64,000 bases of DNA from assembly GCF_003334255.1 (NCBI RefSeq), contig NZ_QOWU01000003.1, one strand, 5' to 3'. Position numbers and translations under genes: made by a program. The stretch comes from Escherichia coli (GTDB taxonomy: Bacteria > Pseudomonadota > Gammaproteobacteria > Enterobacterales > Enterobacteriaceae). The notes below the pieces were generated by a model. That model ran no database searches and was not told the origin of the DNA. It worked only from the letters and a program-made list of their open reading frames with translations. This document shows positions 25,660 to 40,600 of the stretch, piece by piece; positions within the stretch are counted from its first letter, which is position 1; every line of letters starts with the position of its first letter.

Positions 25660-26439
25660 ATGGAAATCAGCCTGTTGCAGGCATTTGCGTTGGGCATTAT
25701 CGCCTTTATCGCTGGCCTGGATATGTTTAACGGCCTAACCCATATGCACCGCCCGGTGGTCCTCGGCCCGTTGGTCGGGCTGGTACTTGGCGATCTGCAT
25801 ACCGGAATTTTAACCGGCGGTACGCTGGAACTGGTGTGGATGGGGCTGGCCCCGCTGGCGGGCGCACAGCCGCCTAACGTGATTATCGGTACTATCGTCG
25901 GCACGGCGTTTGCCATTACTACTGGCGTGAAACCCGATGTCGCAGTAGGTGTCGCCGTACCTTTCGCTGTCGCAGTACAGATGGGGATTACCTTCCTGTT
26001 CTCGGTGATGTCCGGCGTGATGTCTCGCTGCGACCGGATGGCGGAGAACGCCGATACTCGCGGCATTGAACGCGTGAACTATCTGGCACTGCTGGCACTC
26101 GGCATTTTCTATTTTCTCTGCGCTTTCCTGCCTATCTACTTCGGCGCGGAACATGCAAAAACCATCATTGATGTCCTGCCGCAACGATTAATCGACGGCC
26201 TCGGCGTCGCGGGCGGCATCATGCCAGCAATCGGTTTTGCCGTGCTGCTGAAAATCATGATGAAAAACGTCTACATCCCCTACTTCATCCTGGGCTTTGT
26301 TGCCGCCGCCTGGCTCAAGTTACCAGTGCTGGCTATTGCTGCCGCTGCGCTGGCGATGGCGCTGATCGACTTGCTGCGTAAATCTCCTGAACCGACTCAA
26401 CCTGCGGCACAGAAAGAGGAATTTGAAGATGGCATCTAA
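25660..26439 (+). CDS. agaW: PTS N-acetylgalactosamine-specific EIIC component AgaW, full length (259 aa)
   Basis: Mannose-family IIC membrane protein; full length here, whereas the K-12 MG1655 allele is truncated by a deletion (established knowledge). Confidence 0.88.
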   Translation: MEISLLQAFALGIIAFIAGLDMFNGLTHMHRPVVLGPLVGLVLGDLHTGILTGGTLELVWMGLAPLAGAQPPNVIIGTIVGTAFAITTGVKPDVAVGVAVPFAVAVQMGITFLFSVMSGVMSRCDRMAENADTRGIERVNYLALLALGIFYFLCAFLPIYFGAEHAKTIIDVLPQRLIDGLGVAGGIMPAIGFAVLLKIMMKNVYIPYFILGFVAAAWLKLPVLAIAAAALAMALIDLLRKSPEPTQPAAQKEEFEDGI

Positions 26440-27307
26440 TCAAACCACCCTGCCGAACGTCAGTGAAAACGAAGAAACATTGCTGACTGGCGTCAATGAA
26501 AACGTGTATGAAGATCAGAGCATTGGCGCGGAGCTGACGAAAAAAGATATCAACCGCGTCGCCTGGCGTTCCATGCTGTTACAAGCGTCTTTTAACTACG
26601 AACGTATGCAGGCTTCTGGCTGGTTGTACGGTCTGCTGCCTGCTCTGAAAAAGATCCACACTAATAAACGCGACCTGGCGCGCGCCATGAAGGGGCATAT
26701 GGGTTTCTTCAATACCCATCCGTTTCTGGTGACGTTTGTTATCGGCATTATCCTTGCGATGGAGCGTTCTAAGCAGGACGTTAACAGTATTCAGAGCACC
26801 AAAATTGCCGTCGGTGCGCCGCTTGGCGGGATTGGCGATGCAATGTTCTGGCTAACGCTACTGCCGATTTGTGGCGGGATTGGAGCCAGTCTGGCATTGC
26901 AAGGCTCCATTCTTGGCGCAGTCGTCTTTATTGTGCTGTTCAACGTGGTACACCTGGGGCTGCGTTTTGGTCTGGCGCATTATGCTTACCGCATGGGCGT
27001 GGCGGCGATTCCACTGATTAAAGCGAATACCAAAAAAGTCGGCCATGCTGCGTCTATCGTTGGGATGACGGTAATCGGTGCGCTGGTGGCAACCTATGTT
27101 CGTTTAAGCACCACGCTGGAAATCACGGCGGGCGACGCAGTGGTTAAGTTACAGGCTGATGTTATCGACAAACTGATGCCGGCCTTCTTACCGTTGGTCT
27201 ACACCCTGACCATGTTTTGGTTGGTACGCCGCGGCTGGAGTCCGCTGCGTCTGATTGCAGTTACCGTGGTTCTCGGCATCGTCGGTAAATTCTGCCATTT
27301 CCTTTAA
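26429..27307 (+). CDS. agaE: PTS N-acetylgalactosamine-specific EIID component AgaE, 292 aa
   Basis: ATG at 26429 (MASNQTTLPNVSENEETLL...) 9 nt after AAGAGGA; mannose-family IID; overlaps the agaW stop. Absent from K-12 MG1655. Confidence 0.88.
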   Translation: MASNQTTLPNVSENEETLLTGVNENVYEDQSIGAELTKKDINRVAWRSMLLQASFNYERMQASGWLYGLLPALKKIHTNKRDLARAMKGHMGFFNTHPFLVTFVIGIILAMERSKQDVNSIQSTKIAVGAPLGGIGDAMFWLTLLPICGGIGASLALQGSILGAVVFIVLFNVVHLGLRFGLAHYAYRMGVAAIPLIKANTKKVGHAASIVGMTVIGALVATYVRLSTTLEITAGDAVVKLQADVIDKLMPAFLPLVYTLTMFWLVRRGWSPLRLIAVTVVLGIVGKFCHFL

Positions 27308-27324
27308 ATACAATGAGGTATTAG

Positions 27325-27759
27325 ATGTTAAGTATTATTTTGACAGGGCATGGCGGGTTTGCCAGCGGCATGGAAAAAGCAATGAAGCAAATTCTCGGTG
27401 AGCAATCGCAGTTTATCGCCATCGATTTTCCGGAAACCTCAAGCACCGCGCTGCTTACATCGCAGCTTGAAGAGGCCATCGCCCAACTGGATTGTGAAGA
27501 CGGCATTGTTTTTCTGACGGATTTGCTGGGCGGCACGCCGTTTCGCGTAGCTTCAACGCTGGCGATGCAAAAACCGGGCTGTGAAGTGATCACCGGCACC
27601 AATTTGCAACTGCTACTGGAGATGGTGCTGGAGCGCGAAGGGTTAAGCGGTGAAGAATTCCGTGTACAGGCGCTGGAGTGTGGACACCGAGGGCTGACCA
27701 GTCTGGTGGACGAGTTAGGCCGCTGCCATGAAGAATGTCCGGTCGAGGAAGGAATATGA
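27325..27759 (+). CDS. agaF: PTS N-acetylgalactosamine/galactosamine EIIA component AgaF, 144 aa
   Basis: MLSIILTGHGGFASGMEKAMKQILGEQSQFIAIDFPE... (mannose-family IIA with active-site His in the TGHGGFA context). Confidence 0.88.
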   Translation: MLSIILTGHGGFASGMEKAMKQILGEQSQFIAIDFPETSSTALLTSQLEEAIAQLDCEDGIVFLTDLLGGTPFRVASTLAMQKPGCEVITGTNLQLLLEMVLEREGLSGEEFRVQALECGHRGLTSLVDELGRCHEECPVEEGI

Positions 27760-28889
27760 CACACGTTCTGCGCGCCAGAAGGCTGCTGACTGAAGAGGGA
27801 TGGCTCGATGACCATCAGTTGCGTATTGCTGACGGTGTCATCGCAGCAATCGAACCGATTCCAGCGGGCGTGACTGAACGCGATGCGGAACTGCTCTGCC
27901 CTGCTTACATCGACACCCATGTACACGGTGGTGCGGGCGTTGATGTAATGGATGACGCGCCGGATGTACTCGACAAGCTGGCAATGCACAAGGCACGCGA
28001 AGGTGTCGGCAGTTGGTTACCGACCACCGTAACCACGCCGCTTAATACCATTCATGCGGCGCTGAAACGTATTGCTCAACGTTGCCAACGCGGCGGACCT
28101 GGTGCGCAAGTGCTGGGGAGTTATCTCGAAGGACCGTACTTCACGCCGCAGAATAAAGGCGCGCATCCGCCGGAGTTGTTTCGCGAGCTTGAAATTGCCG
28201 AGCTGGATCAGTTGATTGCCGTTTCTCAGCACACCTTACGTGTGGTAGCGCTGGCACCGGAAAAAGAAGGGGCATTGCAGGCCATCCGCCATCTTAAACA
28301 GCAAAACGTAAGGGTGATGCTGGGGCATAGCGCGGCGACCTGGCAACAAACCCGCGCCGCATTTGATGCTGGTGCCGACGGCCTGGTGCATTGCTATAAC
28401 GGGATGACAGGTTTACATCACCGCGAACCGGGAATGGTTGGCGCGGGATTAACGGACAAGCGCGCCTGGCTGGAACTGATAGCCGATGGTCATCATGTGC
28501 ATCCGGCGGCAATGTCGCTGTGTTGTTGCTGTGCGAAAGAGAGAATCGTACTGATCACCGACGCGATGCAGGCAGCTGGGATGCCGGATGGTCGCTATAC
28601 GTTATGTGGTGAAGAAGTGCAGATGCACGGTGGCGTTGTCCGTACCGCGTCTGGTGGGCTGGCGGGCAGTACGCTGTCTGTTGATGCGGCAGTGCGCAAT
28701 ATGGTCGAGTTGACGGGCGTAACGCCTGCGGAAGCCATCCATATGGCGTCACTGCATCCGGCGCGAATGCTGGGTGTTGATGGTGTTCTGGGATCGCTTA
28801 AACCGGGCAAACGCGCCAGCGTCGTTGCGCTGGATAGCGGGCTACATGTGCAACAAATCTGGATTCAGGGTCAATTAGCTTCGTTTTGA
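27756..28889 (+). CDS. agaA: N-acetylgalactosamine-6-phosphate deacetylase AgaA, full length (377 aa)
   Basis: MTHVLRARRLLTEEGWLDDHQLRIADGVIAAIEP... with NagA-type metal ligands (HVHGG); ATG overlaps the agaF stop (ATGA). Full length here; K-12 MG1655 carries a 5'-truncated allele. Confidence 0.88.
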   Translation: MTHVLRARRLLTEEGWLDDHQLRIADGVIAAIEPIPAGVTERDAELLCPAYIDTHVHGGAGVDVMDDAPDVLDKLAMHKAREGVGSWLPTTVTTPLNTIHAALKRIAQRCQRGGPGAQVLGSYLEGPYFTPQNKGAHPPELFRELEIAELDQLIAVSQHTLRVVALAPEKEGALQAIRHLKQQNVRVMLGHSAATWQQTRAAFDAGADGLVHCYNGMTGLHHREPGMVGAGLTDKRAWLELIADGHHVHPAAMSLCCCCAKERIVLITDAMQAAGMPDGRYTLCGEEVQMHGGVVRTASGGLAGSTLSVDAAVRNMVELTGVTPAEAIHMASLHPARMLGVDGVLGSLKPGKRASVVALDSGLHVQQIWIQGQLASF

Positions 28890-31948: not shown

Positions 31949-32752
31949 ATGCATGAAATAACCCTACTTCAGGGATTATCCCTGGCGGCGTTAGTTTTTG
32001 TTCTGGGGATTGATTTTTGGCTGGAAGCCTTATTTTTATTCCGCCCGATAATCGTTTGTACCCTAACTGGCGCTATTCTCGGTGATATTCAGACTGGCTT
32101 AATTACCGGTGGTCTGACAGAGTTGGCTTTCGCCGGATTAACCCCTGCAGGTGGTGTTCAGCCGCCCAACCCGATTATGGCGGGTCTGATGACCACCGTC
32201 ATTGCATGGTCTACGGGCGTTGATGCCAAAACAGCAATTGGTCTTGGCCTGCCGTTTAGTTTGTTAATGCAGTACGTCATTCTGTTCTTCTATTCCGCTT
32301 TCTCATTATTTATGACCAAAGCCGATAAATGCGCGAAAGAGGCGGATACGGCAGCGTTTTCCCGGCTTAACTGGACAACGATGCTCATCGTCGCTTCAGC
32401 GTATGCGGTGATTGCTTTCCTCTGTACTTACCTGGCACAGGGGGCGATGCAGGCGCTGGTGAAAGCGATGCCCGCCTAGCTGACCCACGGCTTTGAAGTG
32501 GCTGGCGGTATTCTGCCTGCCGTTGGTTTTGGCTTGCTGCTGCGCGTAATGTTCAAAGCGCAATATATCCCTTACCTGATCGCCGGTTTCCTGTTTGTTT
32601 GCTACATCCAGGTCAGCAACCTGTTGCCGGTTGCCGTACTGGGCGCAGGCTTTGCGGTGTATGAGTTTTTCAATGCGAAATCCCGGCAGCAAGCGCAACC
32701 GCAGCCCGTTGCCAGTAAAAATGAAGAAGAGGACTACAGCAATGGGATCTGA
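31949..32752 (+). pseudogene. agaC: PTS galactosamine-specific EIIC component AgaC interrupted by an in-frame TAG at 32477-32479
   Basis: Track ORFs 31949-32479 (176 aa, ends ...LVKAMPA*) and 32498-32752 (84 aa) are in the same frame and together form a 267-codon mannose-family IIC. The stop lies in ...ALVKAMPA-TAG-LTHGFEVAGGILPAVGFGLLL..., where homologous IIC proteins have Trp (TGG). Could be a real nonsense allele or a sequence error. Confidence 0.75.
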
Positions 32753-38604: not shown

Positions 38605-39696
38605 ATGAAAAGAGCGCCTCTTATAACAGGTCTTTTGTTGATATCCACATCCTGCACTTATGCCTCCTCAGGAGGGTGTGGAGCCGACAGCACTAGCGGT
38701 GCGACAAATTACAGCAGTGTGGTTGATGATGTTACGGTGAACCAGACAGATAACGTGACAGGACGGGAGTTTACCTCTGCAACGCTAAGTAGCACTAACT
38801 GGCAATACGCCTGTTCCTGCTCTGCGGGTAAGGCAGTTAAACTTGTCTATATGGTCAGCCCCGTACTTACCACCACTGGACATCAGACAGGATATTACAA
38901 ACTCAATGACAGCCTGGATATTAAAACCACATTACAGGCAAACGACATTCCAGGACTCACAACCGACCAGGTTGTCTCTGTTAACACCCGATTCACACAG
39001 ATAAAAAACAACACGGTATATTCTGCTGCAACCCAAACGGGTGTTTGCCAGGGTGATACGTCTCGTTATGGACCCGTTAATATTGGTGCGAACACCACCT
39101 TTACCCTGTATGTCACCAAGCCATTTCTCGGCTCGATGACCATTCCGAAAACGGATATTGCCGTCATTAAAGGCGCGTGGGTCGATGGAATGGGAAGCCC
39201 GTCTACAGGTGACTTCCATGATTTAGTCAAGTTATCGATTCAGGGAAATCTCACCGCCCCACAGTCGTGCAAAATTAATCAGGGCGATGTTATTAAGGTT
39301 AATTTTGGATTCATCAATGGTCAGAAGTTTACCACCCGCAATGCCATGCCAGACGGTTTTACTCCAGTAGACTTTGATATCACTTATGACTGTGGTGATA
39401 CTTCAAAGATTAAAAACTCGTTGCAAATGCGCATCGACGGTACAACTGGGGTAGTAGACCAGTACAACCTGGTCGCCAGGCGAAGAAGTTCAGACAATGT
39501 GCCCGATGTCGGTATTCGTATTGAAAATCTCGGCGGCGGAGTTGCAAATATTCCTTTTCAGAACGGTATCCTTCCCGTTGATCCTTCCGGGCATGGCACC
39601 GTCAATATGCGCGCCTGGCCAGTTAATCTGGTCGGTGGTGAGCTGGAAACAGGAAAATTTCAGGGCACAGCCACCATTACCGTCATCGTGCGGTAA
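38605..39696 (+). CDS. yraK: fimbrial adhesin-like protein YraK, 363 aa
   Basis: ATG at 38605 ([24 protein letters not shown]...) with signal peptide; large tip-adhesin-like subunit; the track ORF has an upstream extension inside yraJ. Confidence 0.88.
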
Positions 39697-40600
39697 AAGA
39701 AGACGTTGCGTTTTGATTAACGCAACGCTTCGGCACTGTTACCCCTGCTGCTCCAGCGCATAACTTATACAGCGCATTTTTCTTCACGCCGTGAATTTCT
39801 GCGGCCAGCGCCGCCGCTTTTTTCAGCGGCAGTTCTGCCTGTAGCAGCGCCAGCGTGCGCAGGGCATCGGCGGGTAAGTCTTCTTCCTGTGCTTTATGAC
39901 CTTCGACAATCAGCACCATTTCGCCTTTGCGACGGTTTTCATCTTCCTTTACCCACGCCAGCAGCTCGCCAACGGGCGCGCCGTGAATGGTTTCCCAGGT
40001 TTTGGTCAGCTCACGCGCCAGAACCACGTAGCGGGATTCGCCTAATACCGCAACGATATCTTCCAGGCTATCTAACAGACGGTGGGTAGATTCATAAAAA
40101 ATCAGCGTGCGCGGCTCCGCTTCAATGGCTTTTAGCGCATCACGGCGGCCTTTTGATTTGGCAGGTAAAAAGCCTTCGTAACAGAAACGGTCAGAGGGTA
40201 AACCCGCTGCGCTTAACGCAGTGATAGCAGCACACGGCCCGGGTAGCGGCACCACGCGGATCCCCGCTTCACGGCAGGTACGCACCAGATGGTAGCCAGG
40301 ATCGTTAATTAGCGGCGTTCCGGCATCGGAAACCAGCGCAATGTTTTGCCCCTCTTGCAGCTTCGCCAGCAGCGTTTCAGCTTTTTGTTGTTCGTTATGG
40401 TCGTGCAGCGCAAACAACCGGGCATTAATCCCAAAATGTTGCAGCAATAAACCGGTGTGACGAGTATCCTCGGCGGCAATCAGATCAACGGCCTGTAATA
40501 CCTCTAACGCACGCTGGGTGATATCCGCCAGATTGCCGATTGGCGTCGGTACAATGTAAAGCTGGCCCTGAGAATTATCCGCCGATTGGTGTTGTTTCAT
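39683..40600 (-). CDS. rsmI: 16S rRNA (cytidine1402-2'-O)-methyltransferase RsmI (YraL); here 305 codons with an apparently frameshifted C-terminus
   Basis: N-terminal 279 aa read as RsmI ([35 protein letters not shown]...). After ...KKNALYK the frame reads [26 protein letters not shown] and overlaps the yraK 3' end by 14 nt; the +1 frame instead reads YALEQQG-stop (TAA at 39739-39741), giving 286 aa. Confidence 0.85.

Follow-up and report, generated by a model that had tools for sequence, protein, structure and literature searches.

In Escherichia coli, the 2'-O-methyl group of 16S rRNA residue C1402 (Cm1402) is added by the methyltransferase encoded by the gene rsmI. As annotated in K-12 AB1157, O157:H7 NE122 and strain G1/2, the reference gene is 861 nt long and specifies a protein of 286 residues (WP_000809262.1), a length that an initial sequence-only reading of the locus discussed here had stated correctly. 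A recent preprint, which combines cryo-EM of RsmI on the 30S subunit with mutagenesis and cites PDB entry 9PZG, describes the last 42 residues of the protein as three helices, the third of which, CTD-alpha3 (residues 274-286), is employed by the auxiliary protomer to bind helix h23b of 16S rRNA, through contacts that involve K274, N275, Y278 and Q285 (10.1101/2025.08.28.672957). Deletion of CTD-alpha3, or of the whole C-terminal domain (CTD), nearly eliminates methylation activity; replacing one CTD contact residue at a time has a smaller effect, a loss of about 20-40%, with Y278A lowering activity by about 40% (10.1101/2025.08.28.672957). Loss of the entire gene is itself well tolerated, with rsmI deletion increasing doubling time by only 12% at 37 °C and making UGA read-through and +1 frameshifting each about 1.3 times as frequent (PMC2831307).

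The allele described here lies within a window of 64,000 nt, the whole stretch of DNA that was analyzed (E. coli contig NZ_QOWU01000003.1, assembly GCF_003334255.1). In the list of open reading frames it occupies positions 39683-40600 of the minus strand, with 305 codons followed by a TGA stop at 39683-39685. Alignment of its translation to K-12 RsmI reveals that residues 1-279 are those of the canonical protein, without a single difference, and that beyond this point a frameshift exchanges YALEQQG, the final 7 residues, for 26 unrelated residues, encoded by out-of-frame codons at 39686-39763 (minus strand), which yields a product of 305 rather than 286 amino acids. The sequence-only reading had described this pattern of 279 RsmI residues followed by a changed tail, and had ascribed it to a single base inserted around 39761-39763. 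Alignment of the region to reference rsmI genes of K-12, O157 and APEC strains, together with base-by-base comparison with three close genomes, bears this out, placing one extra base in the window at 39762-39763 of the minus-strand gene, where it corresponds to one of two A's on the plus strand. On the coding strand, AAG-T-TATGCG stands where the references have AAG-TATGCG, a single T thus becoming TT directly after the codon for K279 (AAG, plus-strand 39764-39766). The canonical TAA stop (39739-39741, minus strand), homologous to the annotated end of the coding sequence in K-12, O157 and G1/2, is now out of frame; the alternative frame does translate as YALEQQG followed by this stop, and the distance to it from the start of the gene is 862 nt, as had been counted, versus 861 nt in the references. 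The difference is a deterministic one with respect to reference sequences and not a statistical pattern, and a chance expectation is not applicable to it.

The stop codon of rsmI is thereby shifted 56 nt downstream, beyond the terminator hairpin of the gene and into the convergent fimbrial gene yraK (38605-39696, plus strand, as given by the annotation of identical sequence in G1/2, E2 and K-12 and by the list of open reading frames). The two genes overlap by 14 nt (39683-39696), as earlier proposed, between the end of yraK at 39696 and the new stop, and the coding sequence of yraK is itself unaltered in the window. An open reading frame of 88 codons at 39497-39763 of the plus strand, on the opposite strand to rsmI and extending across the 3' end of yraK and the rsmI tail, seems to result from the overlap and not to be a gene in its own right. 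A terminator scan places the putative intrinsic terminator of rsmI at 39693-39728 (minus strand), where a strong hairpin with a 10-bp stem (39728-39703) is followed by the tail CTTCTTTTAC (39702-39693), and the 91-nt minus-strand RNA of positions 39670-39760 folds with -34.6 kcal/mol (z = -2.8). In the wild type, the rsmI stop lies 10 nt ahead of the terminator stem, whereas the variant frame runs through the hairpin and the T-tract and stops 7 nt past the latter, within yraK. A translating ribosome keeps terminator hairpins from forming. Since both hairpin and T-tract are now translated, ribosomes that cross this region could weaken the termination of rsmI transcripts, and some antisense transcription could then read through into yraK and the yra fimbrial operon.

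The identity of the product is documented by several comparisons. Its scores exceed the cut-offs of both NCBIfam equivalog models, with 615.4 bits for NF011570/PRK14994 (cut-off 502) and 385 bits for TIGR00096 (cut-off 167.9). The catalytic and SAM-binding body of the class III (tetrapyrrole-methylase) fold is intact, the Pfam TP_methylase domain covering residues 14-213 (E = 1.3e-33) and residues 12-258 being 100% identical to PDB 5HW4, with 9PZG also among the structure matches. The gene is located between yraK and lpoA, as in K-12, O157 and G1/2. What the variant does not possess is the complete three-helix C-terminal domain, CTD-alpha3 (274-286) included, given that residues 280-286 are replaced: the Pfam model RsmI_C matches the wild type over all model positions (1-46) with 64.7 bits, but the variant only at residues 240-280, over model positions 1-41 of 46, with 58.7 bits. 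Since the gene is unchanged and only the allele differs, such a departure concerns function and leaves identity unaffected, and on sequence grounds the variant is RsmI, encoded at the usual locus and naturally frameshifted at its C-terminus.

The explanation that we favor, and which we consider highly probable, is that of a genuine, rare, lineage-specific +1 frameshift allele in which a T was duplicated after codon 279. The frameshift spares the catalytic body and the initial half of CTD-alpha3, rewrites the second half of the helix and adds 19 residues. The 305-aa enzyme would still be produced, probably as a hypomorph; the auxiliary protomer would dock less firmly on h23b, leading to less Cm1402, and the allele could persist since E. 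coli pays little even for losing rsmI altogether. We thus infer a partly impaired enzyme, a prediction that rests on the nature of the residues lost and gained. The frameshift breaks CTD-alpha3 after K279, so that the contact residues K274, N275 and Y278 are retained, while the fourth, Q285, is lost together with the conserved A281 and L282; from residue 280 onwards the variant reads L-C-A-G-A-A-G, placing glycines at 283 and 286, followed by 19 more residues. To gauge conservation, 1.84 billion representative proteins were searched and 133 diverse homologues from the result were aligned. Y278, present in 131 of them, is the most conserved of the h23b contact residues; A281 is found in 86/133 and L282 in 93/133, with other hydrophobic residues in most of the remainder, and 132 of the homologues have at least 5 residues past the K279 column (median 10). 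The conservation of A281 and L282 and the near-universal presence of residues after K279 indicate that the rewritten stretch belongs to the conserved portion of the helix, as opposed to a tail that could be spared. In an AlphaFold2 model of the 305-aa variant, generated with an 80-sequence alignment, the mean pLDDT is 91.4, the helix is kept over residues 274-284, and residues 285-305 are modelled as coil, block means of pLDDT being 68 (281-290), 50 (291-300) and 58 (301-305); the 19 added residues are probably disordered. The model was given little weight with regard to stability, as alignment-driven predictions tend to keep the helix of a family regardless of local substitutions.

A different view of the same real allele would hold that the last 7 residues are dispensable and the new tail inert and floppy, so that Cm1402 is normal and the change functionally neutral, which we find doubtful while according it substantial weight. 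With three of the four h23b contacts surviving (K274, N275 and Y278), with leucine at position 280 being the commonest residue there among the 133 homologues, and with the helix still modelled by AlphaFold2 over 274-284, the 305-aa protein could have near full activity, all the more so as it still passes the NCBIfam equivalog cut-off and as the substitution of individual CTD contact residues is only partly detrimental (about 20-40%; 10.1101/2025.08.28.672957). Neutrality is nevertheless difficult to reconcile with the conservation of the two hydrophobic residues that have been lost, with the observation that essentially no natural RsmI among the 133 homologues terminates near residue 279, with the glycines introduced at 283 and 286 and the disappearance of the contact made by Q285, and with the fact that 19 extra residues begin beside the surface that contacts rRNA.

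More far-reaching would be the existence of a natural clone in which a half-destroyed docking helix leaves ribosomes largely without Cm1402, with antisense read-through into the cryptic yra operon in addition; we judge this combination unlikely. If true, its 30S subunits would largely lack their only 2'-O-methyl group, which would slightly alter decoding fidelity and possibly fitness in the presence of aminoglycosides, and the clone would provide a natural test of the recently proposed mechanism of recognition between CTD-alpha3 and h23b. The allele could also be effectively null, either by behaving as a deletion of alpha3 or by being destabilized through its tail, in which case the clone would be devoid of C1402 2'-O-methylation. 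This appears improbable to us: the near-zero activity that follows deletion of CTD-alpha3 or of the CTD (10.1101/2025.08.28.672957) and the conversion of the conserved second half of the helix into a Gly/Ala-rich sequence speak in its favor, and a null allele could persist, given that loss of rsmI is well tolerated (PMC2831307), but half of the helix and three of four contact residues remain, the AlphaFold2 model retains the three-helix domain, and degradation driven by the tail is unsupported. The persistence of the allele is compatible with any of an impaired, a near-neutral and a near-null enzyme.

All of these readings presuppose that the inserted base is real, a choice that the sequence-only reading had left between a sequencing indel and a true allele and that is settled here in favor of the latter. 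If the source record contained a sequencing or assembly error, the true gene would be the canonical 286-aa rsmI, and it is true that a single-base indel unique with respect to thousands of complete genomes has the typical look of an assembly error, and that all carriers found so far are draft contigs. To evaluate the rarity of the insertion, a 301-nt query spanning it was compared with 5,426 complete E. coli genomes, and 5,415 of them gave a match. Not one of the 5,415 is identical (100%) to the query across the insertion site, the best matches displaying 99.7% identity with one gap (300 bases in the record versus 301 in the query). This absence indicates that the inserted base is not a recurrent platform artefact, as a systematic error of the platform would be expected in unrelated E. 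coli assemblies too. The exact 305-aa protein, on the other hand, is present in public collections (CUJ87562.1, CAM2929053.1 and UPI0006C22B4F). Its gene is carried by the NCBI draft contig CYUC01000004.1 (GCA_001299315.1) as well as by Logan contigs of the runs ERR271233, ERR14335419, SRR8529169 and ERR1948968, of which the ERR271233 contig is common to 16 samples. Over stretches of 2.2-20.9 kb, every carrier contig agrees with the window at 100% identity, the inserted base included. Independent assemblies of raw reads from several differently prefixed runs thus contain the same base, which in effect supplies the read support that had been suggested as a check.

The remainder of the window leads to the same conclusion. 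Base-by-base comparison with G1/2, E2 and K-12 AB1157 identifies the rsmI insertion as the only window-side indel in 64 kb, the remaining window-side differences amounting to a handful of substitutions, while the other differences in length fall on the side of the strains compared: garP of E2 is frameshifted in a poly-T run, and K-12 has the aga deletion as well as an extra 113-bp repeat unit. In view of this lack of any other window-side indel, the assembly is not indel-prone; furthermore, the insertion site contains no homopolymer run, a single T simply becoming TT. An error in the source record is accordingly a scarcely credible explanation. The insertion is a real allele, rare, and confined to one clone or tight lineage, a restriction that stems from the identity of all carriers over 5-21 kb; mainstream references do not have the extension, which belongs to this one rare clone only. 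The carriers may go back to a single strain that was sequenced several times, and not to a lineage in circulation, and a literature search for their run and assembly accessions returned nothing useful on strain or metadata. Three further candidates were rejected: a generally indel-rich assembly, by 64 kb without a second window-side indel; an origin in K-12 or in an old K-12 sequence error, by the full aga cluster (26036-28330) and scattered SNPs relative to K-12; and programmed +1 frameshifting that would restore the canonical tail, by the fact that the insertion is not conserved and that the site, read directly as CUG UAU AAG UUA UGC, holds neither a stop nor a known shift-prone motif and would not count as a site of the prfB type.

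The genomic background of the allele reads as that of a K-12-like strain that is not K-12. The complete genomes nearest to the window, G1/2 and E2 among them, belong to strains of commensal and environmental origin. The segment at 26036-28330, which comprises the 3' part of agaW, agaE, agaF and the 5' part of agaA/nagA, is absent from K-12 AB1157, where its loss is the well-known aga deletion of K-12, which removes part of the cluster; its presence signifies that the window is not derived from K-12, despite approximately 99.97% identity elsewhere. The strain thus has the full aga cluster, but agaC, which encodes the IIC component of the galactosamine PTS (31949-32752), is broken by an in-frame TAG at codon 177 (32477-32479), the result of a TGG to TAG change through an A at 32478, where K-12 and strain E2 have G; the same TAG is found in G1/2, whose annotation labels the gene a pseudogene containing an internal stop. 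Between yhaC and rnpB, positions 14918-15197 hold a 113-bp tandem repeat of 2.5 copies with 94% matches, each unit of which contains the GC-rich hairpin AAACCCGCCGAAGCGGGTTT; K-12 AB1157 has one additional unit relative to the window, and copy number thus varies among close strains. The complete E2 genome has an extra T in a poly-T run of garP, whose counterpart in the window lies around 19838, and the gene is annotated as a pseudogene due to the resulting frameshift, an indel in a homopolymer that contrasts with the non-homopolymer insertion in rsmI.

Frameshift alleles of non-essential genes are commonplace, and the one in rsmI, a gene of this kind, is nothing out of the ordinary among natural mutations. 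The deposited entries of the exact 305-aa sequence already bear the name RsmI, given by their sources. In terms of annotation and quality control, its product should be treated as that of a true frameshift allele, neither repaired as an error nor called a new long isoform. It is also a modest experiment of nature concerning the C-terminal RsmI helix, recently shown to be essential for 30S recognition, with biological stakes that are modest given the mild phenotypes that follow even the complete loss of rsmI (PMC2831307).

Three described forms of the enzyme allow the variant to be placed. With canonical E. coli RsmI (YraL; WP_000809262.1; PDB 5HW4, 9PZG) it shares the start, residues 1-279, the TP_methylase domain, the first 41 of 46 RsmI_C positions, and a locus flanked by the yra fimbrial operon on one side and lpoA on the other; it differs from it in the absence of YALEQQG, and with it of A281, L282 and Q285, in its 26 new residues, and in a stop located 56 nt downstream. 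The engineered RsmI-deltaCTD-alpha3 and RsmI-deltaCTD proteins (bioRxiv 10.1101/2025.08.28.672957) are affected in the same element, the C-terminal helix that docks on h23b; these truncations, which lack either the entire helix or the final 50 residues, have almost no activity left, whereas the natural allele retains residues 274-279, with K274, N275 and Y278, and gains a tail. Finally, the RsmI alleles of 287 residues found in E. coli strains without the yra operon (e.g. WP_021512477.1) likewise represent natural variation at the extreme C-terminus, but there a different downstream sequence adds a single residue (…EQQGE) and, unlike in the variant, both the reading frame and the entire alpha3 helix are preserved.
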